Shown one piece after another: positions 3,356 to 36,925 of a DNA stretch of 56,020 bases. The notes below the pieces were generated by a model, which was given only the letters and a program-made list of their open reading frames with translations, ran no database searches and was not told the origin of the DNA. Each line of letters starts with the position of its first letter. Position 1 is the stretch's first letter. Source of the stretch: Promethearchaeota archaeon (lineage in GTDB: Archaea; Asgardarchaeota; Lokiarchaeia; Sigyniarchaeales; SOKP01). Location of the stretch: NCBI GenBank assembly GCA_048940925.1, contig JBHLOC010000033.1, forward strand, positions 1 through 56,020. The letters run 5' to 3'. The position numbers were made by a program, and so were the translations under genes.

Positions 3356-4495
3356 TTAATTCAATAAATTTAGATCTTTTAATTTGGATTTAATCTTTTT
3401 AGATAACCATCTTGGAATAAGTTTGGAATTTTTAAACCATTTTGACAAATTCTTTTGAAATAGTGGATTTTCAAAGATCGTATTCAATTCTTCTTGAGTT
3501 AAATATTCCAAATAATTTTGGTTTATCAAGTATAAAACCACTGAAGGATAACCACTTTCAAGTCTCTGTGCAATCTCTTCTTTAAATACTTTTTTTGCCA
3601 TAAGATCCCCAGCTTTTATAAGAGCTTCCAACAATGGAAATGCTAAGTTTCTGTGTAATAAACGTGTATCGTAATTATGTTCATACCAAGCTTGAATATT
3701 TGAACAATGTCCCCAAAATTCAGTTTTAGGAGAGATATAATGCTTTTGGAATCCGATTCCATGCGTTGAATCACCGAGCTTTTCTGCTGCTTCATCAATA
3801 GATTCAATCTCATCATACTTTTTAAATTTATTAGGGTTGATATTTAATAATAAATACTTGCAATGATTGAATAATCTCCCTCCAACATATATATTAGTCC
3901 TATTATTTACCAATTTGAGAACTAAGTAATCATTTACCCTGAATTCTGGCCATTCTTTTATGTAGGGCCTTCTTTTTAATTCTAAATGTGGAGGTACTAC
4001 TATTACATCCTGAGAAATACCTTCAAGTAATGTTTCGGCCAAGTTCTCAAAAATTTTTTCAGCTTTTTGTATACTTTTTGATTTATCTATTTGTATTCCT
4101 TGACTTTTAGAAATTTCTTTATCATCTTCTACACATTTAGTTCCGATTATTATTATTGGAATGTCTCCAGCTTCTCGTCTTATTATCTGAACATTTTCAA
4201 GAATATGTGCTAAAGAATTTGCATCATTAATATCATATACTATTATGCCACCATTTGCACCTTTACAATACGTTGGAACCAAAAATCTAAATCTTTCCTC
4301 AGCCCCCATGTCCCATATTTGAAATTTAATATTTTTTCCAAGCATGGTTAGACTTTTAATTAAAAAATCTACGCCAATAATCATTTTTGTATCAGAACCA
4401 AAGAGATTATAGCAAAAATTCCTTGCAAAATATGATCTCCCTTCAGACTCATCACCAATAAGTACTATTTTAAAGGTATAATCATAAATCGCCAT
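3356..4495 (-). CDS. Rab-like small GTPase (degenerate P-loop) fused to C-terminal GHCSN domain
   Basis: FKIVLIGDESEGRS, IGVDF, FQIWDMGAEERF; C-terminal half carries SIDE...EFWGHCSNIQAW...FPLL. Confidence 0.85.
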   Translation of the reverse strand: MAIYDYTFKIVLIGDESEGRSYFARNFCYNLFGSDTKMIIGVDFLIKSLTMLGKNIKFQIWDMGAEERFRFLVPTYCKGANGGIIVYDINDANSLAHILENVQIIRREAGDIPIIIIGTKCVEDDKEISKSQGIQIDKSKSIQKAEKIFENLAETLLEGISQDVIVVPPHLELKRRPYIKEWPEFRVNDYLVLKLVNNRTNIYVGGRLFNHCKYLLLNINPNKFKKYDEIESIDEAAEKLGDSTHGIGFQKHYISPKTEFWGHCSNIQAWYEHNYDTRLLHRNLAFPLLEALIKAGDLMAKKVFKEEIAQRLESGYPSVVLYLINQNYLEYLTQEELNTIFENPLFQKNLSKWFKNSKLIPRWLSKKIKSKLKDLNLLN

Positions 4496-4634
4496 TTGAT
4501 AAAAAAGACCTACTTTTTAGAAGTTATATATCTTTAATTTCTTATTAAACTTACATTCCTTTTTACAAAAAAATAATTAATTAATCTAAATCTTAATACC
4601 CAACATACTACAAAGCAATACATGCTTATAAACC

Positions 4635-4648
4635 TCACAGTTCTGCCG
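4635..4648 (-). promoter_or_regulatory. Degenerate TGACA-N4-TGTNA box next to TATA of the Rab-GHCSN gene
   Basis: Minus strand reads CGGCAGAACTGTGA-GG-TTTATAAG; the surrounding region resembles the upstream regions at 36926-37090 and 42073-42240. Confidence 0.4.
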
Positions 4649-4758
4649 CTATTTCGCACGAAATAAATGAATTTAAAACATATAGTAAATTTAAACTTAC
4701 AATTAGTTTTTTAACAAAAAAGCTATATAAAAGCAAAATTAAGATATTTTAAGTTAAA

Positions 4759-5373
4759 TTATCTTTTCCTTAATTTTGGGAATAAAGCACCTGTATTCTT
4801 TTGATACTCCTTATATTTTTCACCGAATCGTCTAATAAGATCTTTTTCCTCATAGTAAATCATAATAGGGGTATAAATAATAATAAATAATGCAGAAATC
4901 AGAACTAAGAACCATGAATTGAGTGCGAAACTTAACGCAACAAATGTAGGAAATTCTCCAAGTGTTTGAGGGTGTCGAATATATTTATAGATTCCTCCAT
5001 ACATTTCCGTCTCTTTTGATGGACTAAGTGTTTCAGAACCAGCAGCTTTGATACCTAATAACATAAGAATTACACAGGGAATAGCAATACAGATTGCAAT
5101 AATAATTCCTATCCAAATATTGGTACTTATGATCCATGTTTCAAATAGAGGTATTGGGAACCAAATCCAAAGAATTAAACTAATTATAGAGATCAATTCA
5201 AATAAACCGCCAATTCCCCTTAATCTCTTGCATGTATCCCACGCCTTTTCACCATGCTTTTCTGACATTTTAACAGGTTGAATGCTCAGGAGGTATAAAA
5301 ATCCCATCAACAAGATTGAAATAATTAAAATACAAAAATTTATTATCACAACAATCATATTAACACTTCTCAC
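4759..5373 (-). CDS. Isoprenylcysteine carboxyl methyltransferase/PEMT family membrane methyltransferase
   Basis: Multiple TMs; GIYKYIRHPQTLG and EEKDL..RFG..Y..Y...T..LFP motifs. Confidence 0.8.
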   Translation of the reverse strand: MRSVNMIVVIINFCILIISILLMGFLYLLSIQPVKMSEKHGEKAWDTCKRLRGIGGLFELISIISLILWIWFPIPLFETWIISTNIWIGIIIAICIAIPCVILMLLGIKAAGSETLSPSKETEMYGGIYKYIRHPQTLGEFPTFVALSFALNSWFLVLISALFIIIYTPIMIYYEEKDLIRRFGEKYKEYQKNTGALFPKLRKR

Positions 5374-5446
5374 TCAAAAGATTGAATCAAAAATAGCTTA
5401 CCCATTTATATGAACAATGGTTTTAATAATTTTACTTGAAAATCAC

Positions 5447-6001
5447 TTAAATGGGTCTATTACTTTTTTGAAAATAATAACGTTCAAATAATAAAAAGAT
5501 AAACGCATATAAGCCATATATAGCAAATGCAGTAATAAACCATATCGGAAATCCAAAAATATTAACGACCGGAGGATTTCGATAATAGTAAAGTCCTAAA
5601 GCTGCTGCTGTTGGATCAACAAGGAGTTGAAACAGAACACCATATAACGTCACTACAAGGGAAATAACTACAACATCTTTAATAGATAAATCAGTTCCTT
5701 TTGGTTTTCTAAGAGAGAATCGCGCTAATTCAAAAATGACAATAAATATGGTAAATATTGAAACTGGATCTGAAAACCCAAATTCAGTTTCCCCTATTTT
5801 CAGTTTAGCAAATGGTGCGAATTCCAAATCTGCCGCAGAGTAAAGACCTGTGAAAATTAATGCGAACACTAAAGATGAAAGGCATATATTAGTGAGGATT
5901 GTCCCTTTTATACCATACGTTTTAATACAATAATAATAAACCGCTATTAGAAGGTAAATATGAATTACAAGGCTAATATAATGATATATAATCCCAACCA
6001 T
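5447..6001 (-). CDS. Polytopic membrane protein, possibly CruF/DUF422 (carotenoid biosynthesis) like
   Basis: About 5 TMs; DPTA..LG.YYY...GFPIW resembles the DP.a...G.W.W...GvP motif of this family. Confidence 0.45.
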   Translation of the reverse strand: MVGIIYHYISLVIHIYLLIAVYYYCIKTYGIKGTILTNICLSSLVFALIFTGLYSAADLEFAPFAKLKIGETEFGFSDPVSIFTIFIVIFELARFSLRKPKGTDLSIKDVVVISLVVTLYGVLFQLLVDPTAAALGLYYYRNPPVVNIFGFPIWFITAFAIYGLYAFIFLLFERYYFQKSNRPI

Positions 6002-6007
6002 ATTATA

Positions 6008-6166
6008 TCAAAACCTCTTCCTTTGAATTAGCGTTATAATTAGGGGGATTAGAGCTAATGGCCCTGAAATCAATAATACATCAAACCTATCCACTACCAA
6101 AAGAAAAATAAAATCTACAATAAGGATGACAGCATATCCGATTATTAAAAGATCAATTCTTTTCAT
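6008..6166 (-). CDS. Small 52-aa two-TM membrane protein (below ORF-track cutoff)
   Basis: ATG 6166 to TGA 6008: MKRIDLLIIGYAVILIVDFIFLLVVDRFDVLLISGPLALIPLIITLIQRKRF; in frame with, and 6 nt before, the next ATG. Confidence 0.55.
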   Translation of the reverse strand: MKRIDLLIIGYAVILIVDFIFLLVVDRFDVLLISGPLALIPLIITLIQRKRF

Positions 6167-6306
6167 AATTATAACAAATTTTAACTAATTCATATTTTAT
6201 TATAGTTTTTTCCACAAAATTGATTTATGTGATTTTTAAAGACCAATTTTTATTTTATAGTGAATAAAACTTTAAATAACAACTCATAATAATTATAAAT
6301 TGTATA

Positions 6307-8580
6307 GTGATTATGCGAAAATCAAATATGAATAAAAATATTGTTATAACCATAGTGGGTTTATCAATTTTCTTTTTAGTTATGTCTAATCAGAACACAA
6401 TTTCATTTGCTCAGAAGATTGATAATCCTTTACAAATTCCTTTAAATTTCAAAACTTTTGAATTCTCTGAGAAAAAAGATGCATTAAATAATATAAGTTC
6501 TATAGATATAGAATTACCCTCATCAACTTGGGATATCACATATATTGAAATGAATTTTACAGATATTGAATATGATAAAAGAGAGATAAAAATAATTGAA
6601 GGTAACCCTCTTAATGATGACTTATTTTTAAGTAAAAATAATATAGAAGAACTTGCCGTTCAAATTAAGCTCAACGATACTATAAAGATTTTTGGAATAT
6701 ACCTTGATATAAAAACAATTCTACCTCACACATTGGATGAGATATATCTCCAAATAAGAGGTTATAATACATCAATCAATGCCCCAAATAGTACAATCTA
6801 CGGAAGTGTAGATTTAAATCATACAATAGTAGATGGATGGAATTATCAGAATTTTACAACACCTATCACACTCCCTAAAGGTAATTATTCTTGTGTAATT
6901 GGGGGTTTTATTCAGGCAGCAGGAGAATATCATTGGTATTATAATGACTTAAATCCAAATTATCCAGATTTATATCGATCAGAAAATGATGGTACTGGTT
7001 GGATAAATGGTATTCAAGGATCGCCATTTTTATATAAATTAGATCAAGAGGTCAAGTACAATGATGTTTACCCCGAAGAATTTAATATGACCGCTGAAAT
7101 AAACGGAAACTCTTATAAAATCCTAAATAGTACACATATAGGTTCAGGTATTCTTAAGTTATCCGATATAGATATATCTCCTAATGATGAAATTTTATAT
7201 ATTGCTATTAAGCCTAATAAATTCTTCTTCACCACAAATTATCATCTTAAAATGAACAATCAATTCCTTTCTAATGCTTTTATTTATGTATCAGAAAAAG
7301 AAGATAATATCTGGAAAATTATTCCTGAAATTAATAGATGTAATTATAATTATTCTATTAAAATTGAATTGCCAAATAATTGGTATAATTTAGTCGTAAC
7401 TAAGGATCATATAGATATTACCACATCCGAAGATATCTTGATTGATGGAAATTTTTTAAGTATATTAAATAATTCTATTAATGCTGTTGCCTACTGGGAA
7501 ATTTCAGCCCAATCGCCAAAAATTGACTTTAGCTTAGATCTTAGTAGAGGGACTAAATTTAAAGTAGGTGAAGAATTAATATTTTCGACTATCGCTCCAA
7601 TTAGAGAAGGAAATTTCACTTTCATACTCTATAACAAACTTGGAGCAGAAATAGATAAAAGAATAATACCTGTAACTTCAGATGAAACTATATATTCTTT
7701 CAAGATCGCATCAAACGCCTCTCTTGGCACTTGGACGGCCAATATTTATTGGAATAGCCACAATGATGCCGGTGTTAAATCTCAAGATTTCACAATAAGT
7801 CCCACTCCTTTAGACAGTAATCTTATTCTAATAATCATAATAGGTGCATTGGTAGGGGGTGGGAGTGTAACAAGTTTAACTGTTTATCAAACAATTAAAA
7901 GAAAAAAGAGAAATATTGACTTAAAACTTAAAAGTATATCAAACAAATTTAAAGATATCCTCAGTCTAAATTATTTGATGATCTCAGATATCAAATCGGG
8001 AGTAAATGTATATGAACAATTCTTTATGGGAAAATTTATGGATCCGAGCTTAATCTCAGGCTTTCTAGATGCTATAAGAAACTTTGGAATTGAATTAACT
8101 GGTTCATATAAGAAATCAGAAACATTAAGTCTAGATTACGAAGATTCAATAATTTTAATGAATGAATCAGAAGATTTTAGGATAATTATTGTAATGTCGG
8201 AAAAACCTTCAGAAGAATTCACAAGTTTAATAACGAATTTAGCAAAAGACATTGAGGAAAAATATGGAGATCTACTTCGAAAGTTTAAAGGAGGACAAGT
8301 TACACAATTTGCTGGTTTGAGCGAATTAATTGAAAGGCATCTGAATGTTTCATTTGCTTCTCCTTTAGAGATTGTTTTCCAAAAGAAAGCTAAACTTAAT
8401 ACTGCTGAAAAATCAATTATAGAAAAGGCAAATGTAATTATGAACCAAACCAATTTAAATTATTTTTACACTTCACTATTAATGCCTGATCAAAAGTTTG
8501 ATCCAGATATGACAAAAGTAATATTCGGTTTAATTAATAAAAAAGTATTTCAACCAATTAGTTTAAATTTTGAAGAATAA
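6307..8580 (+). CDS. Single-pass receptor-like protein: signal/TM, large beta-rich ectodomain, TM, cytoplasmic longin-like domain
   Basis: Many NxS/T sequons; TM near aa 507-527; cytoplasmic LMISDIKSGVNVYEQ...DPSLISGFLDAIRNFGIEL longin-type pattern. Confidence 0.7.
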   Translation: MIMRKSNMNKNIVITIVGLSIFFLVMSNQNTISFAQKIDNPLQIPLNFKTFEFSEKKDALNNISSIDIELPSSTWDITYIEMNFTDIEYDKREIKIIEGNPLNDDLFLSKNNIEELAVQIKLNDTIKIFGIYLDIKTILPHTLDEIYLQIRGYNTSINAPNSTIYGSVDLNHTIVDGWNYQNFTTPITLPKGNYSCVIGGFIQAAGEYHWYYNDLNPNYPDLYRSENDGTGWINGIQGSPFLYKLDQEVKYNDVYPEEFNMTAEINGNSYKILNSTHIGSGILKLSDIDISPNDEILYIAIKPNKFFFTTNYHLKMNNQFLSNAFIYVSEKEDNIWKIIPEINRCNYNYSIKIELPNNWYNLVVTKDHIDITTSEDILIDGNFLSILNNSINAVAYWEISAQSPKIDFSLDLSRGTKFKVGEELIFSTIAPIREGNFTFILYNKLGAEIDKRIIPVTSDETIYSFKIASNASLGTWTANIYWNSHNDAGVKSQDFTISPTPLDSNLILIIIIGALVGGGSVTSLTVYQTIKRKKRNIDLKLKSISNKFKDILSLNYLMISDIKSGVNVYEQFFMGKFMDPSLISGFLDAIRNFGIELTGSYKKSETLSLDYEDSIILMNESEDFRIIIVMSEKPSEEFTSLITNLAKDIEEKYGDLLRKFKGGQVTQFAGLSELIERHLNVSFASPLEIVFQKKAKLNTAEKSIIEKANVIMNQTNLNYFYTSLLMPDQKFDPDMTKVIFGLINKKVFQPISLNFEE

Positions 8581-8627
8581 ATTATAAAATTAAATGAAAA
8601 AATATCAACTAATTTAAAGTTTAGAAA

Positions 8628-9086
8628 ATGGACGATATAATTTGGATTCACATCATTGATAGCTCCGGTGCAAATGTTTTTAGTTATGAAAATTATATCA
8701 AAGGCACTTCTGAAGTTAACCTTGCTTTATTATCTCATTTTATCTATGCGTTACAAGCAGTTGCTAAAAATATGGAAGCAGATGAAGTTAAAGAAGTTGA
8801 TATAGATAAAAATAAATTCTTTTTAATTAAGGAAAAACTAACTAATTTCCTCTTTATTATAAAAACTAAACCAAAAGCAAAATCTGATGCAATAACTATA
8901 ATAATAAAAAAAATTAAAGAAAAATTTGTTGAGAAATTTACGGGTCATTTCACATTGCCAGTTCAAGAAAAATTAGAACTTTTAAAAGCTTTTAAAGAAG
9001 ATGTAAAGAGAATAATTGAAGGGAAAAATCAGCGAATAGATTTAATAGATTCCCTCTCAAAGAGTAAAAGAATTACTCGAATTTAA
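8628..9086 (+). CDS. Stand-alone longin-like domain protein
   Basis: IWIHIIDSSGANVFSY...LLSHFIYALQAVA beta-beta-alpha-beta-beta-beta-alpha pattern; 47 nt after the receptor gene. Confidence 0.65.
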   Translation: MDDIIWIHIIDSSGANVFSYENYIKGTSEVNLALLSHFIYALQAVAKNMEADEVKEVDIDKNKFFLIKEKLTNFLFIIKTKPKAKSDAITIIIKKIKEKFVEKFTGHFTLPVQEKLELLKAFKEDVKRIIEGKNQRIDLIDSLSKSKRITRI

Positions 9087-20013: not shown

Positions 20014-20037
20014 TAACAAAAATGTGGATTTATATAT
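20014..20037 (+). promoter_or_regulatory. TGACA-N4-TGTNA-like box plus TATA upstream of the GHCSN-Rab gene
   Basis: TAACAAAAATGTGG-A-TTTATATA; it overlaps the ORF-track ATG at 20022, implying a downstream start. Confidence 0.45.
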
Positions 20038-20102: not shown

Positions 20103-21176
20103 GTGGGATTATTCAAGAAAAGGAGAGAAAAGCCGGTTAAGATATTTAAGATAAATGATTTGGTGGACTTAAGATTAATAAATAACAGGACTCATATCTA
20201 TATCAAGAATGAACCATTCATTATTTGTGCCCACTTATTAATAAATATTCCAATTGAGAATATTCACAATTATGATGATATTAAATCTATTGATGAAACT
20301 ATAGAATCATTTAAATCAACAGAGAAAATCCAATATATGATATCTCCGGAAGAAGAATTCACGGGACATTGTTCAAACATTCAGGCATTTTTCGAGAACG
20401 GATTAAATACAGATATTTTGCATACAAATATTGCATTTCCGTTATTAAGAAAATTAGTAGAATTGAAATTCGAACCAGCCCAAAGAATCTTCAAGGAAGA
20501 AATAGTAATAAGATTTAATGAGGGCACTAAAAGTTCAAGATTTTTCTTAAGTACAGAAGGATATCTCAATTATCTCAATGAAGAAGAAAAGCAGGCATTG
20601 AGAGGTTATAAGACTTCTTGGTTTCAAAAAAAGGGCACTCCTGATTTTATGTTTAAAATAGTTATTGTAGGTGATGATAATGAGGGAAGATCAACATTAG
20701 TACTAGACTATTTAAACTCACGGAATTACAACCCTTTTTCCCCTATTGGAGTAAATTTTGCCACAAAAGACATAGTAATAAATAACATTGCTGTTAGATT
20801 ACAGATTTGGTTTCTTTCTAATCTTAAATTATATGAAAAGCTTTTTGAATTTTTTTTATCTGGAACTTTAGGAGCAATAATAATTTATGATATGACTAAC
20901 ATTAATTCTATGAATAGTGTCCCTAAATGGATCCAAATCATTAGAACAAATAAATGGATTCAATCCAGAGGATATATTCCGATAATCTTGGTAGGGAATA
21001 AATCTGATTTGGAAGAAAACCGTGTTGTATCAAAAGAAGAGGCAATAAAACTTAAAAATATGCAGAACATAACAGAATATATGGAAATTTCTTTGAAAAC
21101 AGGGGAAAATGTTGCTGAGATGTTTAATGAGATTACAAAATTGATATATCCGCATCAAAGGTCTGAGTCCCTATAA
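20103..21176 (+). CDS. GHCSN domain fused N-terminally to a degenerate Rab-like GTPase
   Basis: SIDE...EFTGHCSNIQAF...FPLL, then FKIVIVGDDNEGRS, IGVNF, LQIWFL, GNKSD, EISLKTG. Start re-called to GTG 20103 (MGLFKKRR); ORF track starts at 20022. Confidence 0.8.
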   Translation: MGLFKKRREKPVKIFKINDLVDLRLINNRTHIYIKNEPFIICAHLLINIPIENIHNYDDIKSIDETIESFKSTEKIQYMISPEEEFTGHCSNIQAFFENGLNTDILHTNIAFPLLRKLVELKFEPAQRIFKEEIVIRFNEGTKSSRFFLSTEGYLNYLNEEEKQALRGYKTSWFQKKGTPDFMFKIVIVGDDNEGRSTLVLDYLNSRNYNPFSPIGVNFATKDIVINNIAVRLQIWFLSNLKLYEKLFEFFLSGTLGAIIIYDMTNINSMNSVPKWIQIIRTNKWIQSRGYIPIILVGNKSDLEENRVVSKEEAIKLKNMQNITEYMEISLKTGENVAEMFNEITKLIYPHQRSESL

Positions 21177-25445: not shown

Positions 25446-26192
25446 TTAATTACTCTCTCTTAATTTTAATTCTTTTCTGAGATTATCTAATTGCTTCTCT
25501 TTTAGACTTATTGTATTTTCCATGATTTTAATTTGATTAATTTTTGATCTTATTTCCTTATCCTTCGATTTAAGAGATTCCTCTAAAATATTTATTTCTT
25601 CATCTTTCTTTTCAATAGTTTTCCCTAATTGTAGAATTTCTTTATCTTTGGATTTTACTAGATCTTGTAAATTTTCAATTTGGTAGTCTTTGTATACTAT
25701 TGAATCTCTTGCTAAGCTGAATTCCAAATTTTTAGTTTCCTTATAGATTATTTCTTGCTCTTTATATTCCAATTCACTCATTAATCCTTCTTCATAAAGT
25801 GCTTTTATAATCGTGAACTCATAAAAAGTATCTGAAAAATCTTTTTCTGTTTCTAATATAAAAACTCGATCTAGGCTTATTTTAGCTGATTTTACAGAAT
25901 TGATAAATTCTATGTTATTGCACGAATTCAGTTTTCTGATAAAAATTATGATATTCGCATTGCTATAATAACTTGGCTTGAGGCTTTTAAAGTCTTTATT
26001 TTGACTCAGAACCCACGCTTGAACTTTTATATTATGATTAAATAGCTTAAATTTTTTAAGATAAAACTCAGCACCAGTTGTTTTTGAACGAGAATCCAAA
26101 AAAATTGAATCTCCAATAATATTTGAAATGATTAGTCCATCAATAACAACCTTGAAAAGAAATTCAGATTGATTTGCCTCAATGACATTCAT
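25446..26192 (-). CDS. Highly degenerate Rab-like domain (P-loop lost) with C-terminal coiled coil
   Basis: FLFKVVIDG, TTGAEF, KVQAW, F..L.PSYY.NA.IIIF; heptad K/E-rich tail. Confidence 0.65.
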   Translation of the reverse strand: MNVIEANQSEFLFKVVIDGLIISNIIGDSIFLDSRSKTTGAEFYLKKFKLFNHNIKVQAWVLSQNKDFKSLKPSYYSNANIIIFIRKLNSCNNIEFINSVKSAKISLDRVFILETEKDFSDTFYEFTIIKALYEEGLMSELEYKEQEIIYKETKNLEFSLARDSIVYKDYQIENLQDLVKSKDKEILQLGKTIEKKDEEINILEESLKSKDKEIRSKINQIKIMENTISLKEKQLDNLRKELKLRESN

Positions 26193-27520: not shown

Positions 27521-27570
27521 ATCTTAAGAAGATTTTTTGGATTTATAGATAAAATTAAAAAAAAAATTGA

Positions 27571-29682
27571 TTAGATACTTAATAAGTCTAACGTAGCATA
27601 TAGAGCAGGATGGTCGGATTCAAGTCCACCAGTATAATGGATATATGTCACGGACTCATTTAATTGTGAAGAAATAAATATGTGGTCTATACTTTCATCG
27701 GGAATTGTACGATCACCAGGGAGATTAGGATCTACAACTGCATTAGCGGGATCAGAATTGAATACTAATTCCCAAGAATCATATAATTGAGCCACTGTTA
27801 TGTTATATTGTTCTGTATTAGGCTCAAAATTAAAATCTCCCATTAAAATAACATTCTCTTTTCCCGCAGTTACAGTTAAAATGTTCTCTTGTTGGACAAT
27901 CTGAGTTCTATCACCCAAAGTTGTATTTCTATAATTTCCAAGGTGAGTTACGAATATATTAAATATTTTCCCCTCTACAGTAATCTGTGCCCAAATCGTT
28001 GCAGTTTGTTCTTCTACGCATTCCATGTAAAATGTACGGGCTTTCATAATAGGATATTTTGATAAGAAAGCTATTCCATAAGTACCAGTCACGGTTTTAG
28101 GCCCATAATATGAATAATATCCCAATGTTGAACTAATGTACCGCACAAAATCATTATTTCCATTAGAAATCCGAGCTAAATCTGACTCCTGCAAACCAAT
28201 AATATCTGGGTTTAACTTCTCAATTACTGCACGCTGGCCCTCAAAATTCATAATTCCAACATCATCAGCACCTTGATGGACGTTGTATGTTAAAATTGAA
28301 AGCGTATTATTCTCAGCAGGAGGTCGTATATTTGGGAATTCAAGGAGGATACACCCCACAATTGTTCCTATGGAAATTAATATAATTGCACTAATAGTTT
28401 TAAAAATTTTCATCATGTTATCCCTAGATCTCTTAGAAAAAGTCATAGATTCTTTTTTAACTAATAAAAGAGGCCACACACAAAATACGCCAATAATCAA
28501 GTAAACAACCCAAATCATATCCTTAAATAGTGATCCAATTACTGGAATATAAGGCCATGTAGTAGTAAAGACTGCTGATAATATCATAAGAATGAGAAAA
28601 AAGCCCGATGCAAAAAAACCTACTCCCAGTTTACGTGTTGAAGGTTTGCTTTTTAATAATTCTCTTAGTAAAATTACAAAATCAATAAATGTAATTGGCG
28701 AAAGGAAAAGCATCAAATAAAGAATTATATGATGAAAGATTGTTGTTTCTGGTGCAAAATACGGATATTTTGTTATAAATGCAAATGGAATTTGATTGAT
28801 TCCTATAGTAAGCACAAGCATTAGTACGAATAATATATTCCATAGTAAAATACCCTTTGGAGGTATTTTATTGATTAAATCTGGTTTTACAGCAGCAATA
28901 ATAATAAAACTTGTTATTATTAAGATGAAAATTGTGATGATTGCTATGTAATTCCCTTCTGTCCACCTTTCAATAACAACAGGACTACTAAACGCAAAAT
29001 AATATAGAATTAATATAGTGAATATGCCCAAACATAAAGCTAGCACTTTCCATTTACTCCCTATCTTTCCTATATCATTCACTTTTTCTGTCTCTGCTTC
29101 ATTTCTGGGAGGGTTTAACAAGTTTATCATCAATATCGTAGCAATAATAGCAAAGATCCATCCAATCCACTGAAACCAAAAAGTTAATGCTAAATCAACG
29201 GAATAGCCGAGTGTTCGAAATAAAATTGATAGCGCTAATCCAAACCCTAAACTGATGCCTAATGATAATCCACTTCTTTCACTACTTTCTAATGATTTTT
29301 TTTGAAGATATGCAGGAAAAAAGAGTAGGAAACTTCCCATCCCAATTCCAGTAATTATCATTTCTATTCGTGGCTCAAAAAAAGGTTGTAAAATCCTACA
29401 TACTATCGTAATTTCACCAAGTATAATCATCGATTTTTTAGAAAGACCTTTTTTGAAAAACAATAAAAATATTGGAGTCAATAGGAATAAAACTGCGGCT
29501 ACATTTTCATTTAGTCCCTCGACAATATAGTTTAAAAGATAAATAGCTTCGATAAATTGTGTTAACTGTTCGAAAAAGAAGAAAAACACTATGCTAAGAA
29601 GTATTATTTCAGAATAATATCTGCTTAAATATTTTTTATAGATTTCCATAATGTATAATTTACTCACATTATATTTAAACAT
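27571..29682 (-). CDS. Multi-TM protein with C-terminal EEP (endonuclease/exonuclease/phosphatase) domain, CWH43-like
   Basis: More than 10 TMs; TYNVHQG, PDIIGLQESD..R...GN.D, YGIAFLSKYPI, MGDFN, IDHIF, SDH. Confidence 0.8.
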   Translation of the reverse strand: MFKYNVSKLYIMEIYKKYLSRYYSEIILLSIVFFFFFEQLTQFIEAIYLLNYIVEGLNENVAAVLFLLTPIFLLFFKKGLSKKSMIILGEITIVCRILQPFFEPRIEMIITGIGMGSFLLFFPAYLQKKSLESSERSGLSLGISLGFGLALSILFRTLGYSVDLALTFWFQWIGWIFAIIATILMINLLNPPRNEAETEKVNDIGKIGSKWKVLALCLGIFTILILYYFAFSSPVVIERWTEGNYIAIITIFILIITSFIIIAAVKPDLINKIPPKGILLWNILFVLMLVLTIGINQIPFAFITKYPYFAPETTIFHHIILYLMLFLSPITFIDFVILLRELLKSKPSTRKLGVGFFASGFFLILMILSAVFTTTWPYIPVIGSLFKDMIWVVYLIIGVFCVWPLLLVKKESMTFSKRSRDNMMKIFKTISAIILISIGTIVGCILLEFPNIRPPAENNTLSILTYNVHQGADDVGIMNFEGQRAVIEKLNPDIIGLQESDLARISNGNNDFVRYISSTLGYYSYYGPKTVTGTYGIAFLSKYPIMKARTFYMECVEEQTATIWAQITVEGKIFNIFVTHLGNYRNTTLGDRTQIVQQENILTVTAGKENVILMGDFNFEPNTEQYNITVAQLYDSWELVFNSDPANAVVDPNLPGDRTIPDESIDHIFISSQLNESVTYIHYTGGLESDHPALYATLDLLSI

Positions 29683-29959: not shown

Positions 29960-30859
29960 CTAATTATCTTCCTCTTCTTCATTTATTTCTTTACCGTTAA
30001 CTTCTCCCTTTAAAACTTTTTTTATCTCTTTTTTGCTTTCTTGGGCATCAGTATCCAATTCTTCTTCTGTGAAAAATAAACCAGTTTCATCTTCAATATC
30101 AAGCTTTGTCATTTTTTCTATGTATCCTTCATATAAATCATCAATGATTATATTTAAATTTGAAATCGAATCTCTGATTTTAGAGTTCTTTTTCAGAGAA
30201 TCTTCGCTTAAACTAATCTCTTCACTGATTTTCTTCACCTCTCTTAACATTTTTTCCAAAGATTCAAATATATACCGGTCATTTAATATTGATGTTATTT
30301 TCCCTTCTTCTGAGATTTTTCTTGTATCCTCCCTAATTTCCCAATATAAATCCTGTATCCAATCTTTGATTAAGGTATCGTTTTCTTTTATACGTTCTTT
30401 ATCACTTTCATCGTACTTTTTTATTTCCTTTATATGGAACCCAGTAAAAATGTCCTCATTCGCTTGCATCTTTTCTGAAAATTTTTTAGCTAAATAAGAT
30501 ATAGTCTCTTCAATCTCAGGGGAAATTTCCAGAGTAGTCATTATTGAAAGCATCAACATTTCTACAAAACCACGAGCCCAATCTGAGTAAATTTGAAAAT
30601 AATAATTTATTAATTTCAAATTTTCGAATGATTGCGTTAAATATTCTTCCTTCTTCGGTTGATTCATAAGATCGAATATTCTATCTGCTATTTCTTTATC
30701 CACCTGAGATTTAGGAAATGAATAAAATATTGATGGCCCTATTTTTGTATGAAAATATGACAAAATTACATTCGTTTTAAACCACGCTCCACTTCCTTCT
30801 ACTCTAAGAATACATAAGAAAATCTCAAAATATAAATTCATAACTATATTCATTTTCAT
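29960..30859 (-). CDS. uDENN/longin (NPRL2/FLCN/SMCR8-like) domain with coiled, acidic tail
   Basis: VILSYFHTKIGPSIFYSFP...FQIYSDWARGFVEMLMLS; start uncertain. Confidence 0.7.
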   Translation of the reverse strand: MKMNIVMNLYFEIFLCILRVEGSGAWFKTNVILSYFHTKIGPSIFYSFPKSQVDKEIADRIFDLMNQPKKEEYLTQSFENLKLINYYFQIYSDWARGFVEMLMLSIMTTLEISPEIEETISYLAKKFSEKMQANEDIFTGFHIKEIKKYDESDKERIKENDTLIKDWIQDLYWEIREDTRKISEEGKITSILNDRYIFESLEKMLREVKKISEEISLSEDSLKKNSKIRDSISNLNIIIDDLYEGYIEKMTKLDIEDETGLFFTEEELDTDAQESKKEIKKVLKGEVNGKEINEEEEDN

Positions 30860-30992: not shown

Positions 30993-31514
30993 TTAATTCC
31001 TTAAATTAATAATTCTACGAGCTAGTTCACAAAATGCCTCTTCAACAATATCTTCATTAGTAGGAGACATTTCAATATAGATGCCTCCCTCATTTCTGGC
31101 AAATTCATGAGCTTCGTCTCGGATAACTGGAATACCTGTCAGTTCAAATAACTGAACATTATCTCCAATTAAAATGAAAGGAATAGGACCAGCTGATTGT
31201 CTAATTTCAGTAAGTAACTTTTTTGTCTCATTATATGTTTGTTCTCGTGTTAAATCAAAAATTAATATAACTCCAGCCGCTCCTTTATAAAATGTATTGC
31301 GAATAAACTCAAAACGTTGCTGTCCTCCTAAATCCCATATGCTTAGAGTCGCAATTTCTCCCTGAGTATATTCTACATCCTTAGTAAGAATATCTACACC
31401 AACAGTTAGCTTGTAATTTGTTTGAAACCTATTTTTGATAAATTGTTGAATTAAGCTGGATTTGTCCACTGCAATATCACCTGCCAATAATACTTTTAAT
31501 TTAAAACTTGACAT
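30993..31514 (-). CDS. Rab-like small GTPase with degenerate G1/G4
   Basis: GDIAVDKS, TVGVD, IWDLGGQQRF, FYKGA; G4 replaced by GDNVQ. Confidence 0.85.
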   Translation of the reverse strand: MSSFKLKVLLAGDIAVDKSSLIQQFIKNRFQTNYKLTVGVDILTKDVEYTQGEIATLSIWDLGGQQRFEFIRNTFYKGAAGVILIFDLTREQTYNETKKLLTEIRQSAGPIPFILIGDNVQLFELTGIPVIRDEAHEFARNEGGIYIEMSPTNEDIVEEAFCELARRIINLRN

Positions 31515-31579
31515 ATATTTACACTAATGTCCTAATAAGATTAAATCCCTTTTTAAAGATTGCATAAAAATTTTGTTGA

Positions 31580-32830
31580 TTATATAATGACAGGGACAGC
31601 GATCATTCCTTTTTTAGGCCCTCCTCCCCCTCCAGGAGGTTTAAATATATATGGAAAAGGAAAAAATCCCCCTTCATCATCATCTTTTTTATGTCCGCAC
31701 CAATCGCAAATGTCTTGCCCTTTTCGTAGGACTCTCCAACAATATGAACATCTTGATTCTTTCCTCCGAATTTGTTCTAAAATCATCTGTTTGAGTAATT
31801 TTTTTTTTTCATCTAATTCACCCAATAACATATTATTTAGATTATTGAAAATTATAGCTTCTCTTACGTCTAAAATACCTCTCCTTGGTAAATCCGGTAA
31901 AATTATTTCCTGTCCTGTAATCTTATTTTCAATTACAAGAATACAATCTATAATATCTTCATCCATTTTTTCACTAACATGTCTGAGAAGATTTTCTAAT
32001 GCAGTTTTAAGACTAAATAATAATCGGGGATTCGATCTATAATAGGGTCTCAAAGATGGCATTCTAGATTCTGCCGAAATACTCGAAATTATGATATTTT
32101 TTCCTTCAGGAAGCTTTAGAATTTGTAAAAGAATATCCTCCAGTAAAGTTGGAAACTTAGGAATACAAGATGATAAAAACCGAGACAATATCTTGGGATC
32201 AGATGAGAGCCCTTTAATAAGTTCAGTTGACTCTATTATTGTTTTGAACTCTGAAGGAGTAAAATATTGTATATATCCTTGATTAAGGAGATACTGGACT
32301 ACTGAAGGATATCCGCTCTCGAGTCTTAGAGCAATCTCTTCTTTAAATATTTTACTTGCTAGGGGATCTCCTGCTCTGGTCAACTCTCTTAACAAAGGAA
32401 ATGATATATTACTCATTAATATCCTTGTATCATAATCATACTCTACCCATGCTTGAATATTAGAACAATGCCCCCAAAACTCCTGTTCGGGAGTAATATC
32501 ATGTCTCTGGTTTGGTACAAGAGCTGCCATAGGCCCCCTTACGATTCTATTTTGGAATACATGTTTACTATACAATTTCGCTGCCTCATCTATAGAATCA
32601 ACCTCATCATATAAGGGGACATCTTCTTTCGGGATGTTTAGGATTAAACGAATACACTGGATGAACCTTTTGCCATTTACATAGATAAAAGTCTTTCCAC
32701 GCTCCAACTTGAGTGTGATATATTGATTAATATTTTTTTCGATTGTTGGAGTTGATTTACCTATATCATACCCAGCTATATTGGCATTTAACCAATCAGC
32801 ACCAAAATCATTCTTATCCTTAAATTTCAT
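31580..32830 (-). CDS. GHCSN-domain protein with C-terminal zinc ribbon and FPFPYIFKPP tail
   Basis: SIDE...EFWGHCSNIQAW...FPLL; CSYC..CDWC; DDDEGGFFPFPYIFKPPGGGG. Confidence 0.75.
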   Translation of the reverse strand: MKFKDKNDFGADWLNANIAGYDIGKSTPTIEKNINQYITLKLERGKTFIYVNGKRFIQCIRLILNIPKEDVPLYDEVDSIDEAAKLYSKHVFQNRIVRGPMAALVPNQRHDITPEQEFWGHCSNIQAWVEYDYDTRILMSNISFPLLRELTRAGDPLASKIFKEEIALRLESGYPSVVQYLLNQGYIQYFTPSEFKTIIESTELIKGLSSDPKILSRFLSSCIPKFPTLLEDILLQILKLPEGKNIIISSISAESRMPSLRPYYRSNPRLLFSLKTALENLLRHVSEKMDEDIIDCILVIENKITGQEIILPDLPRRGILDVREAIIFNNLNNMLLGELDEKKKLLKQMILEQIRRKESRCSYCWRVLRKGQDICDWCGHKKDDDEGGFFPFPYIFKPPGGGGGPKKGMIAVPVII

Positions 32831-33032
32831 ACAAGTTCTTTCGCTTATGTAATTTGATTATTATTTCTCTTTCAAGTGCGGATTCCTGAAGATTTGACAT
32901 TTTTCTTTTCCAAAGATTGACAAAAAAATCCAACTATATATTTTTCACATTTGATGCTTTTAGACTAAAATTTCTTTATTAATATCAAGCAATTATAGTT
33001 GAATAAATTAGTAAATTTATTGTTATCAATCT

Positions 33033-33467
33033 TTATTTCTCTTTTCTTAAAATTCTTGATATTTCATGCGAAGTGCGCTCACATTCATGGAAAATCAACC
33101 CTAATTTCACTTTTTCTGTGGTTGAAACTGCTAAAACAGCAGGTTCTGCTTCAAAGACTAATAAATAACCATCATTTCCTTTGATATATAGTTGATTGAA
33201 TTCCCCAATATCCATATCTATAACCGTTCTTTCAGATAAGGAGAGCAAAGTAGCTACCATTGCAGAAAGCCTAGTCTCATCATATCTTCGGGGTAATATT
33301 GAAAGAATAGGGAGTCCTTCCATAGAAGTAATTATCGCAATTATTATATTAGGGTTATTTTTTAGCAATTTTTTTAGAACAAATTCTAAATTTTCCATGC
33401 TATTATTTTCTCCAACCATAATAACTTCTATCTCCTTTTCTATTTCAGACTTTATTCCAACAAGCAT
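33033..33467 (-). CDS. Roadblock/LC7 (MglB/LAMTOR-like) protein
   Basis: AIITSMEGLPI...LSAMVATLLSLSER...YIKGNDGY...KLGLIF; the true start may be the ATG at 33419. Confidence 0.85.
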   Translation of the reverse strand: MLVGIKSEIEKEIEVIMVGENNSMENLEFVLKKLLKNNPNIIIAIITSMEGLPILSILPRRYDETRLSAMVATLLSLSERTVIDMDIGEFNQLYIKGNDGYLLVFEAEPAVLAVSTTEKVKLGLIFHECERTSHEISRILRKEK

Positions 33468-33495
33468 ATAACAAAATTAGTACTTTAATAAAAAT

Positions 33496-33666
33496 TCAAT
33501 GTATATTTTTTTCTATGTTTCTTAACTTAGCTATTTGCTCACGATTTATTGGCAAATCTTTATTTGGGTTGCATTTTTTAAAAATTCTTATTAAATCCCG
33601 GCATAGATCTAAAAGGAAATCTATATCATCCGGAATTTGCAGATTTTTAACTTCTCTCCCATTCAT
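33496..33666 (-). CDS. Small 56-aa hypothetical protein upstream of roadblock gene
   Basis: MNGREVKNLQIPDDIDFLLDLCRDLIRIFKK...; ATG start; co-oriented with the roadblock gene. Confidence 0.4.
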   Translation of the reverse strand: MNGREVKNLQIPDDIDFLLDLCRDLIRIFKKCNPNKDLPINREQIAKLRNIEKNIH

Positions 33667-33685
33667 GGTTTTTCGCTATCAGTCT

Positions 33686-33808
33686 GTATATTAAAGTATA
33701 TTCCTCTGTATATTAATTGTATATTTACATATTTAAATCTTTGTGTTAAAGTATTATTTATAAGTATATCCCTCTATATTTATATATGAGAATATACAAA
33801 TAATATAC
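33686..33808. repeat. Phased GTATATT heptamer array in divergent promoter
   Basis: GTATATT at 33686, 33696, 33708 and 33719; near-copies at 33764 and 33774; inverted AATATAC at 33791 and 33802. Confidence 0.65.
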
Positions 33809-33952
33809 AGATTAAATAAAAAACAAGAAAATATCACTATTATTAAGAAGTAATTATAAGCACATACTAAGCAACTGAGATTGATATTTACAATTGTTAT
33901 ACATTATTCGAGATGGATCAATGAAGAAAACTACAGTTAAGGGTGAGTATTA

Positions 33953-34807
33953 ATCACTTTAAATTCTGAAGAGGGGCTAAGCAATAAGGATCGTATATTA
34001 AACCTTCTCAAAACTACATCATTAACTAGTAATGAAATCGCAAATAAGCTCAAGTTAAGCAAACAAGATACACGTACTTATCTTCTACGCCTCAAAAGAG
34101 AAGGAAAAATTAAAACTCTTGGAAAAAGAGGAAGACAATATATTTACACCATTAAAACCCCTTTTGATACAGAAAAATCTCATATAGATACTGAAAAAAC
34201 TCAAATTGATGCAAATAAGTTAGTGGAAATTTTAAAAGATTATCTTGAGTTTAAACCAAGCTTTAAAACTGAAATTAACCAGAAAATTGCTGAACTCGAA
34301 GCAAGGGTTAATACCGTAACTTCTAAAACAAATAAAACTTATAAGGATTTAGAAGAAGAACTTGAAATGTTACAATACATTGAACCCTCTGATAATCAGA
34401 GCCTTAAATCTCCATACTTCTTATCAAGAGAAATGTTTCAATCTTCTGTTTTAGAAAACCTTGATAAACTCTTAGGGAAATTTATAAATACCATTCCAGA
34501 AGTAAAAGCTGCAACTGTTGTTTCCACTGAAGGGGAAATAATAGCTTCGGCTCTTCCTCAGGATGTTGATGAGGCAACAATTGCTGTAATGACTGCTGCA
34601 CTTCTCTCATTAGCTGAAAGTGCCATAACTATGATAAAAAGTGGTGAATTTGAATATTTATTTATCAAGGGAAGAGATGGATATCTACTAGTTCTACAAG
34701 CAGGACAAAACGCTGTATTGGCCATCTCTACATCTAAAGATGTAAGACTTGGATTAATTTTTCTCGATTGCAAGCGGACTGCTGAACAAATTGCGAAATT
34801 GATTTAA
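33953..34807 (+). CDS. wHTH - coiled coil - roadblock/LC7 fusion (ORF track misses the wHTH)
   Basis: Frame is open from 33947: NKDRILNLLKTTSLTSNEIANKLKLSKQDTRTYLLRLKREGKIKTLGKRGRQYIY; C-terminal AATVVSTEG...IKGRDGY...RLGLIF. Start inferred at ATC 33953. Confidence 0.75.
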   Translation: MTLNSEEGLSNKDRILNLLKTTSLTSNEIANKLKLSKQDTRTYLLRLKREGKIKTLGKRGRQYIYTIKTPFDTEKSHIDTEKTQIDANKLVEILKDYLEFKPSFKTEINQKIAELEARVNTVTSKTNKTYKDLEEELEMLQYIEPSDNQSLKSPYFLSREMFQSSVLENLDKLLGKFINTIPEVKAATVVSTEGEIIASALPQDVDEATIAVMTAALLSLAESAITMIKSGEFEYLFIKGRDGYLLVLQAGQNAVLAISTSKDVRLGLIFLDCKRTAEQIAKLI

Positions 34808-34863
34808 TTTTGTTCTTATTAATCAATTTGAGATTAATACTAGGATTTTTTTTATTCATAAAA

Positions 34864-35574
34864 CTACTGGAAACATACTAAAACGGATAAAAAAACCGAT
34901 AAAAAAATAACGATAATTGCTGATAAAATAGCTAAAAGTATTACTTTTAGATCCGATACCTTCATTGGTTTTGATTGAATAAATTGTCCATATTGTCTAA
35001 CCATAATTGGAGAGATAATTTCTCGAGGTACTAACCTAAACTCATTCTCCTCTATTTTTTTTCCTAGTATCATTTCTGCTAATTTCATAAACATTTTTTC
35101 CACATTTTCACCTGTCTTTAAAGAGATCTCTATTGATGAAGATACATTATGAGATTCTTTAATCCTCTCTAATTGATCTTTAAATATATCTCTATTATCT
35201 TCCAAATCTAATTTATTTCCTACTAATAAAATCGGACAAGAATAATTCAAATTATCCTTTAGTATTTGCCAACTCTCAGAAATCCAATTTAAAGTATCCT
35301 TATTAGTAATATCATACATCAATATTACACCATTAGTTCCCTTAATGTACTGGTCCCAAATGAATTTAAATCGTTCTTCGTTTTTAGACAACCAAGTTTG
35401 TACTTTTACCTTTTCTCCATGAATTTCTAATGTTATACTAAAAAAATCAACCCCAATAGTCAAGCTCCAATTTTCTTCATGCAAAAATCCTCCTAAATAT
35501 TTATCTACTAATGTTTTTTTCCCTACATTTTCCATAGCTAAAATACAAATTTTAAAGGTAGAGTCATATCTCAT
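34864..35574 (-). CDS. Tail-anchored Rab-like GTPase (degenerate G1/G3)
   Basis: AMENVGKK, TIGVDF, QTWLSKNEERF, GNKLD, EISLKTG; C-terminal TM ending VCFQ. Confidence 0.8.
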   Translation of the reverse strand: MRYDSTFKICILAMENVGKKTLVDKYLGGFLHEENWSLTIGVDFFSITLEIHGEKVKVQTWLSKNEERFKFIWDQYIKGTNGVILMYDITNKDTLNWISESWQILKDNLNYSCPILLVGNKLDLEDNRDIFKDQLERIKESHNVSSSIEISLKTGENVEKMFMKLAEMILGKKIEENEFRLVPREIISPIMVRQYGQFIQSKPMKVSDLKVILLAILSAIIVIFLSVFLSVLVCFQ

Positions 35575-35647
35575 TATATCAAATTACCTTATTCTCAAAA
35601 TTTTTATCTCTATTCTTTGATTCTAATAAAAATCTTGGTATTTAATT

Positions 35648-36925
35648 CTATATACCAGACAATTCGTCAATTATGTCTGTATAACAGAGTTCACATATCA
35701 TCGGTTTTCCATTTAGAAATTCATGAATCGAAGTTTGTGATACTTTAGAGCCACAATAAGGGCATTTCAACTCCTTTAATTTCGCTTTAATTCTTTTAGT
35801 TAACCATCCTGGAATAAGTTTAGAATTTTTAAACCATTTTGGTAAGTTTTTTATAAATTTTGGTTTTTCTAAAATGGTATTTAATTCGTCGCTATTCAAA
35901 TATTTCAAATACCCTTCATTTATTAAATACCAAACAACAGAAGGATAACCATTTTCAAGCCTTAGAGCAATTTGCTCTTTAAATACTTTTTTCGCACGTT
36001 TATCTCCTACTTCAACAAGAGCTTTCAAAAGAGGAAATGCTAAACTCCTATGCAAAATACGAGTATCATAATTGCATTCATACCATGTTTGTAAATTGGA
36101 ACAATGTCCCCAAAATTCAGTTTCAGGAGATATATATTCATTTGGTCTACTTCTTTCCATTGATCGATCTAATTTCACTGCAGCTTCGTCTATTGATTCA
36201 ATATTATCAAAACGTTTAAAATTATCACGAGGTAAATTTAACAATAAATATTTACATCGATTAAATAATCGCCCTCCAACATATATATTTGTTTTAGCAT
36301 TTTCTAATCGGAGTTTTAAGTAATCGTTAACTATGAATTCAGACCTAATTTTTCTATCTGTGGATTTTAATAATTTTGGGGGGTCTGCTAGTTCTATTCT
36401 GTCTGATGATAACCTTTTAATTAGTAGATCTCCTAATACTTCGAAAACTCGATCCACATTCTGCCCAGTTTCCGGACATATTTCTGCAAACGCAGAGAGA
36501 TCATTTTTTTCTGCCGCTATAACTCCTTCTTGTTTAGAAACTGCTCGAGATTCTCCTGAATAAAGTTTTGATCCTACCAACATAATTGGGATAGGTCCTC
36601 CCTTCGCTCTTACAATATTCGTCCATTCTGAAATGTTATCTAAAGTAGAAGGTTTAGTAATGTCATACATAAAAATAGCTCCATTAGCACCTAAACAATA
36701 TGTAGGAAGTAGAAATCTAAATCTTTTTTCGCCACCTACATCCCATATTTGTAATTTAATACGTTGGTTATTTAACTCAATGGTTTTGACATGAAAATCA
36801 ACTCCAATTGTTAATCTTTCACTCAAGTTGAAAATGTTATAGCAAAAGCGCTTTGTGAAAGATGTTTTTGCCGCAGGATCATCTCCGAGGAGCAATACTT
36901 TCCAAGTATAATCATAAGTTGACAT
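35648..36925 (-). CDS. Rab-like GTPase - GHCSN domain - zinc ribbon fusion
   Basis: GDDPAAKT, TIGVDF, LQIWDVGGEKRF; EFWGHCSNLQTW; CPYC..CELC. Confidence 0.85.
   Translation of the reverse strand: MSTYDYTWKVLLLGDDPAAKTSFTKRFCYNIFNLSERLTIGVDFHVKTIELNNQRIKLQIWDVGGEKRFRFLLPTYCLGANGAIFMYDITKPSTLDNISEWTNIVRAKGGPIPIMLVGSKLYSGESRAVSKQEGVIAAEKNDLSAFAEICPETGQNVDRVFEVLGDLLIKRLSSDRIELADPPKLLKSTDRKIRSEFIVNDYLKLRLENAKTNIYVGGRLFNRCKYLLLNLPRDNFKRFDNIESIDEAAVKLDRSMERSRPNEYISPETEFWGHCSNLQTWYECNYDTRILHRSLAFPLLKALVEVGDKRAKKVFKEQIALRLENGYPSVVWYLINEGYLKYLNSDELNTILEKPKFIKNLPKWFKNSKLIPGWLTKRIKAKLKELKCPYCGSKVSQTSIHEFLNGKPMICELCYTDIIDELSGI

Follow-up and report, generated by a model that had tools for sequence, protein, structure and literature searches.

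Our analysis concerns a protein domain of ~160 residues, here called GHCSN, that is encoded four times in a window of 56,020 nucleotides (the whole stretch of DNA analysed, contig JBHLOC010000033.1) from a Promethearchaeota archaeon. We found that GHCSN is a new domain family within a known kind of Asgard signalling context, and that it is a constant module with promiscuous partners, in which linkage to Ras-like G domains is real but confined to a minority of members. The reading we favour, while giving it a little less than an even chance, is that GHCSN would be a shared cytoplasmic head-plus-repeat module whose candidate pocket ties variable scaffolds and pseudo-GTPase/Roadblock platforms to one common element. 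What is new here is the composite anatomy of the domain, the pattern in which its polar residues are lost together, the count of its fusions to G domains, and the degeneracy of these G domains next to canonical sister paralogues.

Translation and alignment of the four open reading frames (ORFs) gave 39-52% identity across the domain and 45 invariant columns, which include FxxC, SID(E), P..EF.GHCSN.Q, FPLL, FKE and R. The window has a G+C content of 30%, and the metagenome-assembled genomes with names among the relatives are Promethearchaeota/Lokiarchaeota. The four ORFs, and the G-domain gene adjoining the one that stands alone, are these:

P0001, 3356-4495, minus strand: degenerate Ras-like G domain (~4001-4495), then GHCSN (3470-3946, residues 184-342).
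P0002, 35648-36925, minus strand: degenerate Ras-like G domain (36401-36925), then GHCSN (35867-36340, residues 196-353), with a basic amphipathic stretch (35750-35842) and a zinc ribbon (35684-35764) in its C-terminal part.
P0004, 20022-21176, plus strand: GHCSN (20142-20603, residues 41-194), then degenerate Ras-like G domain (20634-21173), that is, the reverse order.
P0003, 31580-32830, minus strand: stand-alone GHCSN protein, with the domain at residues 31-200 (head 32408-32740, first helical repeat unit 32231-32407), then a helical extension, a zinc ribbon (31697-31750) and a tail (31583-31696).
30993-31514, minus strand: Rab-like G-domain gene (173 residues), 65 bp downstream of P0003, with degenerate G1, G4 and G5 motifs.

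All four partner domains match Pfam Ras, with E values ranging from 3.7e-26 in P0001 to 1.9e-37 in the 30993 product (7e-31 in P0004), and the GHCSN part of P0001 matches the domain profile at 1.7e-76; P0003 has no Pfam or NCBIfam match. The P-loops read GDESEGRS in P0001 (which has DMGA as its G3 motif and lacks NKxD), GDDPAAKT in P0002 (also without NKxD), GDDNEGRS in P0004 (where DxxG is lost to WFLSNL and NKSD is retained) and GDIAVDKS in the 30993 product. Among the four partners, DxxGQ occurs only in the 30993 product and NKxD only in P0004. These results bear out what a first-pass annotation of this DNA had described, namely one domain in four copies, joined to G domains in both orders and once split between genes 65 bp apart, with invariant FxxC, SIDE and GHCSN motif residues and a non-canonical P-loop in every partner. 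The start of P0004 had to be corrected: its longest ORF begins at the ATG at 20022, and 20103 is an internal GTG.

The family is large and its distribution narrow. A profile search recovered 12 copies in the 4.8-Mb genome that carries the window (E 1e-90 to 1e-10), and the five other strong copies there consist of the domain with leucine-rich repeats (LRR; three cases) or with a helical extension (two cases). A nine-sequence profile searched against 1.8 billion proteins matched 2,803 representative clusters at 50% identity, 1,807 of them below 1e-30. Both counts put the resemblance among the four copies well beyond chance. The domain was present in 36 of 40 sampled genomes of its own GTDB family, with 1 to 23 copies apiece. 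Across a sample of the phylum, 23 of the 25 genomes from that family contained it, as opposed to 0 of 126 from 26 other families. Among the genomes sampled, GHCSN is thus restricted to one Lokiarchaeial family; some of the NCBI records with matches are labelled Thor-, Hod- or Heimdallarchaeota. Building a profile of the copies and tabulating their partners, as the first-pass annotation had proposed, yields a large family, and its statement that no function has been assigned also stands. The best Pfam match to the domain has E 0.024, far under the cut-offs, NCBIfam and PADLOC gave none, and a profile search of PDB sequences gave a best E of 0.78. Foldseek searches of PDB, VIA wide and the ESM Atlas returned no informative match for the head, the ESM Atlas matches being Promethearchaeota clusters only. 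The literature searched contained no description of the domain; the closest remark, by Tran et al. 2024 (PMC10933270), is that small GTPases of MK-D1 are fused to 'various domains of unknown function'.

Some loci hold only short remnants of the head, comprising the beta-meander and the SIDE motif and often interrupted by in-frame stops (C43:40771-40998, minus strand, L011; likewise in genomes G008, G019, G022 and G024). Such remnants suggest rapid birth and death of family members.

The ~160-residue unit is composite: a unique head of ~100 residues is followed by the first unit of an alpha-helical tandem repeat of ~72 residues. This follows from two observations. Profile columns ~100-159 recur in tandem in many family members, with seven units at a period of 72 in P0125 and four to seven units in P0009 and P0019, all of which have the head-to-tail repetition of an alpha-solenoid. 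Moreover, a profile of the repeat, whose motif is FPLL..L...GD..AKK.FKEE..R..G......YL...YL.Y...EE, aligns with columns 102-161 of the domain (hhalign, probability 99.6%, E 3.9e-24). No Pfam repeat model matches the ~72-residue unit, which differs from the ARM/HEAT type of alpha-solenoid repeat by its period, by its own motif and by a head without counterpart. The possibility that the GHCSN helix is itself a diverged repeat helix ('LNHSKLL') found no support, as hhalign aligns the two only from FPLL onward. An AlphaFold2 (AF2) model of P0003 residues 28-205 has a predicted local distance difference test score (pLDDT) of 77. In its N-terminal part, four short strands make up a beta-meander whose strand 4 ends with Cys32. 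A poorly modelled segment that has SIDE at the start of a helix comes next, and after it a variable loop; a 17-residue helix (87-103) then carries E-F-W-G-H-C-S-N-x-Q-x-W in its middle, and five more helices come after it.

The most informative feature of the head is a cluster of polar residues. Over 249 full copies, in profile numbering, Asn6, Cys30, Ser50, Asp52, Glu76, Phe77, His80, Cys81, Ser82, Asn83, Gln85, Trp87, Glu89 and Tyr92 are each 93-98% conserved. In the copies that deviate, Cys30, Glu76, His80, Ser82, Asn83 and Gln85 are replaced en bloc, while the scaffold residues IYV, W..N.YD, FPLL and GD are retained. This joint loss occurred in at least 4-6 separate degenerate lineages, often affecting the second copy where a protein has two; among them are a clade of two-copy tetratricopeptide repeat (TPR) proteins in which the other copy is intact, as well as P0056, P0016 and P0137. 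Since the cluster is lost while the scaffold stays, the fold does not need it, and we therefore argue that these six residues form a putative functional pocket. Glu76 and His80 share a helix with an i, i+4 spacing, and the sheet contributes Cys30; such a layout would lend itself to a metal site or to a Cys/His/Glu centre. The first-pass annotation had proposed a metal site or Cys/His catalytic centre. The joint loss lends indirect support to a functional centre that includes Cys30 and His80, but the Cys of the His-Cys pair, Cys81, falls outside the pattern, being mostly retained where the others are lost. In the AF2 model, which is of moderate quality there, His-Cys lies mid-helix and Cys32 ends strand 4; in papain-like and other Cys-His hydrolases the nucleophile Cys sits at a helix N-terminus or elbow and the His on a neighbouring strand.

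Two degenerate copies lie in the genome of the window, on contigs C67 and C5. The former (C67:63751-64851, minus strand, L010) has lost the entire polar cluster and is fused to a domain with multiple transmembrane helices and a rhomboid-like GASGAIFG motif.

What varies among family members is the partner. We took the best 120 of the members above 313 residues, with precomputed Pfam assignments: LRR is the commonest partner (58/120), Ras is found in 23/120, only TPR in 5/120 and none in 28/120; WD40, DUF4240, Rad51-like and SAP/Rho_N partners are single cases each. The LRR fusions agree with a kinship to Lokiarchaeial LRR proteins that the first-pass annotation had mentioned. At 30 loci from four other genera we counted 16 LRR proteins, 12 others and 2 Ras fusions, with a Ras gene within 1.5 kb in 3, and in 24 of these loci the domain started no more than 60 residues into the ORF. 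GHCSN is thus usually the N-terminal constant part of proteins with variable scaffolds (LRR in about half, TPR, WD40, helical repeats) and membrane anchors. Ras-like G domains are attached in about 15-20% of GHCSN proteins. The view of GHCSN as a dedicated GTPase-coupled effector, which the first-pass annotation had proposed, is not supported by these counts: LRR outnumbers Ras among the partners, only 3 of 46 loci from other genera are Ras-fused and 3 Ras-adjacent, and 8 of the 12 copies in the genome of the window have no Ras domain within 9 kb (the nearest is farther away for six, and there is none on the contig for two).

The link to Ras is nevertheless recurrent. The genome of the window has 85 ORFs with a Ras domain, and for 4 of its 12 GHCSN copies such an ORF is no more than 1 kb away; the expectation from random positions is 4.6%. 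Local hidden Markov model searches identified 32 Ras fusions among 231 members: 28 with Ras before GHCSN, 3 in the reverse order and 1 with two Ras domains before GHCSN. In a tree of 112 G domains, made with FastTree as the single method and to be read cautiously, 23 fused G domains including those of P0001 and P0002 form one well-supported clade together with four unfused members, and the remaining fusions (P0004, L018, P0081 with L022, P0109, P0144 and P0229) are scattered. Parsimony requires 11 changes of fusion or loss, at least 5 of which are forced by supported branches; by this tree, Ras fusion arose at least 5 times. The branch of P0003 gives a complementary picture. Among its seven loci, a Ras gene lies directly downstream in 3 (the window, L013 and L014) and 1.5 kb downstream in L049, the L052 protein is itself fused to a Ras domain (555 residues), and the remaining two have no Ras in range. 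The neighbouring genes are related to the fused domains: L014ras1, which adjoins P0212, falls inside the main fused clade, and L013ras, which adjoins P0194, clusters with L014ras2 and the fused P0144. The 30993 product of the window belongs to a different clade from the neighbours in L013 and L014, and the neighbouring Ras was therefore replaced at least once. On this point the first-pass annotation was right: the joining to Ras-like domains, fused in both orders or split, is recurrent, with at least 5 fusion or loss events and with orthologues in the P0003 branch that are adjacent or fused.

Structure prediction added little on how the two domains might meet. A complex prediction with alignments for the P0003 domain and the 30993 product, run without controls, gave an interaction score (ipSAE) of 0.01, below the mark. 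In a full-length AF2 model of P0002 (25 fused homologues) the individual domains are confident and the linker is disordered, with a predicted template modelling score (pTM) of 0.48.

The G domains linked to GHCSN look like degenerate, possibly non-switching, domains rather than working GTPases. We compared the motifs of 33 fused G domains with those of the 82 other Ras domains of the genome of the window. A canonical P-loop GxxxxGK[ST] is found in 1/33 of the former and 71/82 of the latter, DxxGQ in 0/33 and 45/82, and [NT]KxD in 4/33 and 55/82. Two sister pairs illustrate the contrast. The 30993 product differs from a canonical, 70%-identical paralogue on contig C87 by changes from GxxxxGKT to GDIAVDKS (Gly to Asp), from NKAD to DNVQ and from SAK to SPT, and has a branch length of 0.43 against 0.07. 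The G domain of P0002 differs likewise from its closest stand-alone relative, a canonical, 67%-identical paralogue on contig C74 (GDASVGKT, AKID, SAK) that is conserved throughout the family. These sequence comparisons make a repeated loss of the P-loop upon linkage to GHCSN suggestive, not proven. The pairs 30993/C87 paralogue and P0002/C74 paralogue offer matched degenerate and canonical proteins for comparison.

A Roadblock neighbour is conserved in two sub-branches only, both of which are represented in the window. The order Roadblock-P0003 recurs in a genome of the same genus (L016/L049), and the Roadblock protein near P0002 is 58% identical to that encoded directly upstream of P0120, a P0002-like fusion (L041). 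A Roadblock gene or domain lies within 3.5 kb in L042, L046 and L047 too, and none lies within this distance at L043, L044, L045 and L048. Of the 12 copies in the genome of the window, 2 have a Roadblock gene no more than 2 kb away, where random positions would give 1.8%. The small ORFs upstream of the P0003 orthologues in L013 and L014, which we considered as candidates, are not Roadblock.

Other cues point to the membrane. The zinc ribbon and tail of P0003 are kept in its orthologues P0194, P0212, P0208 and P0200, three of which add N-terminal transmembrane helices. In P0003 orthologues these helices and then a Lys cluster precede the domain, which is therefore placed in the cytoplasm. Further membrane-proximal cues are the tail-anchored Ras-like protein next to P0002 (34864-35574) and the basic amphipathic stretches of P0001 and P0002.

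Two short motifs of the window recur outside the domain. P0001 (3356-3460) and P0002 (35750-35842) share the basic amphipathic stretch KWFKNSKLIP.WL.K.IK.KLK directly after GHCSN, and it may be a membrane-binding helix in these proteins without lipid anchors. The tail of P0003 is an acidic FPFPYIFKPP-Gly stretch behind the zinc ribbon. The string FPFPYIFKPP occurs twice in the window after acidic residues, in this tail (31634-31660, minus strand), which is conserved among P0003 orthologues, and in an unrelated ORF of 317 residues (46199-46225 within 46043-46996, minus strand); it is possibly a portable docking motif.

The genes around the GHCSN copies are as follows.

33033-33467, minus strand: Roadblock/LC7 gene (Pfam Robl_LC7 E 2.9e-13), directly upstream of P0003.
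29960-30859, minus strand: 299-residue protein without Pfam match, next in the same-strand run, its membership positional only.
27571-29682, minus strand: gene of the endonuclease/exonuclease/phosphatase family (EEP), PGAP2IP-like, which ends the run Roadblock, GHCSN, Rab, 299-residue gene.
34223-34807, plus strand: second Roadblock/LC7 gene (194 residues with an N-terminal extension, Pfam Robl_LC7 E 1.1e-17), near P0002.
34864-35574, minus strand: degenerate Ras-like protein (Pfam Ras E 1.3e-29) with a C-terminal transmembrane tail anchor, 73 bp downstream of P0002.
37313-37906, plus strand: near-canonical Ras-like GTPase gene (Pfam Ras E 1.4e-29; GSAGVGKT, TKLD), divergent from P0002 and linked to it by position only.
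41617-42072 and 43830-44630, minus strand: further degenerate Ras-like ORFs, by motif comparison.
25446-26192, minus strand: truncated Ras-like ORF, P-loop unalignable.

The tail-anchored product has AMENVGKK and WLSKNE in place of the motifs and a hydrophobic tail, and the 41617-42072 product is one of the unfused members of the clade that holds GHCSN-fused G domains. Ras-like paralogues are concentrated in the window, an island that holds 10 of the 85 Ras-domain ORFs of the genome, most of them degenerate in G1, G3 or G4; 5 of the 11 non-canonical P-loops among the unfused Ras domains of the genome fall in it. Two paralogous TPR proteins (40166-41506, 446 residues, and 42482-43786, 434 residues, both on the plus strand) alternate along the DNA with the degenerate Ras genes 41617-42072 and 43830-44630, and no GHCSN domain was detected in either. 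The genome has only two EEP genes, and the P0002-like fusion at locus L041 is likewise followed by an EEP gene (L041, 5830-7335). The EEP proteins of the window and of L041 are only 24% identical over 186 residues and no further locus has one, which makes an association of EEP with GHCSN a weak lead only.

How might these observations fit together? In the reading we favour, the head would form a pocket from Cys30, Ser50/Asp52, Glu76, His80, Ser82, Asn83 and Gln85, most likely with a metal ion, or else binding a single small ligand or partner in common. The module would use the pocket to tie the scaffolds and the membrane pseudo-GTPase/Roadblock platforms to a common partner or signal, and the attached G domains would serve as constitutive interaction modules, not as GTP switches. 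Two cassettes of the window may represent such platforms: Roadblock, GHCSN protein and degenerate Rab (33467 to 30993, minus strand), and degenerate Ras-GHCSN fusion, tail-anchored degenerate Ras and Roadblock (36925 to 34223). A bolder version, which we consider unlikely, would make the head a metal-dependent hub-docking or catalytic element in the signalling network of one Lokiarchaeial family, whose LRR/TPR/WD40 receptors, numbering dozens in each cell, receptor-like membrane proteins and pseudo-GTPase/Roadblock platforms would share one partner. Several of our own results weigh against the favoured reading. All four Ras-linked copies of the genome sit in one Ras-rich island of 56 kb, the window itself, and are not four independent events. 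The full-length model of P0002 shows no confident packing of the G domain on GHCSN, and the SIDE region, which would contribute to the pocket, is modelled with low confidence (pLDDT 39-52). The P-loop contrast between linked and unlinked G domains is largely shared ancestry: only six phylogenetically independent pairs are available, of which ~3.7 go in the expected direction, ~0.1 in the opposite one and the rest are tied (median p 0.125), and the G4 motif shows no trend across them. Finally, the strong conservation of so many polar residues fits an enzyme equally well.

The head might indeed be an enzyme whose active site, of Cys/His(/Glu) type or dependent on a metal, would receive substrates recruited by the LRR, TPR, WD40 and pseudo-GTPase parts. 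Some 20 near-invariant polar residues are preserved over hundreds of paralogues, the joint loss of six of them in copies that keep the fold recalls pseudo-enzyme duplicates, and pairing a constant domain with substrate-binding repeats that vary is typical of enzyme targeting: repeat domains recruit the substrates of NEL/IpaH ligases, of CHAT/caspase-like proteases and of U-box and F-box ligases. We nonetheless regard this as rather unlikely. The head is small (~100 residues) and resembles no enzyme family by sequence or fold, its His-Cys pair is modelled mid-helix instead of at a helix N-terminus or nucleophile elbow, Cys81 mostly survives the loss of the other residues, and no substrate can be named.

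The fusion data lend themselves to a different explanation, in which GHCSN would be a dedicated partner of small GTPases (an effector, a GTPase-activating protein, a guanine-nucleotide exchange factor or similar to a GDP-dissociation inhibitor) and its LRR-linked members would bind GTPases encoded elsewhere. At least five independent fusions in both orders, the conserved GHCSN-Ras neighbourhood with a fused orthologue in the P0003 branch, and the position of L014ras1 within the clade of fused G domains all fit such a role, as do the placement of the domain after the G domain in 28 of 32 fusions, like COR after Roc, and the Roadblock neighbours, which are known GTPase regulators. Yet most members have no Ras (3 fused and 3 adjacent of 46; none within 9 kb for 8 of 12 own-genome copies), the linked G domains mostly lack switch motifs and may have no nucleotide state to read, and the full-length model shows no confident intramolecular packing; we judge this explanation improbable. 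A purely structural role seems to us more doubtful still. Solenoids commonly need caps, and the head could be the N-terminal cap or folding nucleus of the helical repeat and LRR solenoid, its conserved residues being structural: the C-terminal third of the domain is itself one tandem helical repeat unit, and the domain is N-terminal in 24 of 30 loci, usually with a solenoid next. However, degenerate copies keep the scaffold (IYV, W..N.YD, FPLL, GD) without the polar cluster, which is thus dispensable for the fold, the stand-alone and Ras-fused forms have a single repeat unit and no solenoid to cap, and the head is far more conserved among paralogues than the repeats.

Asgard archaea have many Ras-like GTPases, Roadblock/longin and LRR proteins, and GHCSN physically links three of these classes. 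It is among the largest unannotated families of one Lokiarchaeial family, a genome having as many as 23 copies. Should the head prove to have a defined partner, ligand or activity, this would provide a common handle on dozens of otherwise uncharacterised LRR proteins per genome. It would also mean that pseudo-GTPase scaffolds, a theme known from eukaryotes, are present in their closest archaeal relatives.

The closest comparisons are with proteins that combine a G domain or a small adaptor with repeats. Like the ROCO proteins (LRRK2, bacterial Roco), Ras-fused GHCSN proteins have a Ras/Roc-like G domain followed by a constant non-catalytic domain, often with LRRs. One protein from the loci of other genera (L056, 526-2853, minus strand, genome G004) is a chain of 776 residues with Ras, GHCSN, TPR and LRR in this order, which recalls ROCO except that GHCSN stands where COR would be. 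The G domains also score against the Pfam Roc model. In contrast to ROCO, the Ras model outscores Roc, a G domain is lacking from the majority of GHCSN proteins, the G domains seen here are degenerate and the repeats come after them, not before. No COR family reached Pfam thresholds in P0001, P0002, P0004, L056 and P0081, with no search aimed at remote or structural COR likeness. Roadblock-GTPase modules such as MglB-MglA, Ragulator/LAMTOR-Rag and the Asgard Roadblock/longin-GTPase architectures (Tran et al. 2024, PMC10933270) are similar in that Roadblock adjoins GHCSN-linked G domains in two sub-branches. They differ in that GHCSN would be a third, undescribed component, in that only 2 of the 12 own-genome copies are near Roadblock, and in that the G domains of the window are Rab-like by Pfam, not MglA or Rag. 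As a functional analogy, F-box-LRR/WD40 and BTB-Kelch proteins also carry a small conserved domain on interchangeable LRR, WD40 or TPR scaffolds, and RhoBTB (an atypical Rho with BTB) parallels the GHCSN branch whose atypical G domain has impaired motifs; we found no sequence or fold similarity of GHCSN to F-box, BTB or U-box. By analogy, the architecture thus appears most like that of Roc-COR, RhoBTB and F-box/BTB constant-adaptor proteins, and, as the searches returned no sequence or fold match, it is taken to be a member of none. If GHCSN does act as a hub, it would be an independent prokaryotic counterpart of the eukaryotic logic that joins a constant adaptor to variable repeats, as in F-box, BTB, RhoBTB and Roc-COR proteins.

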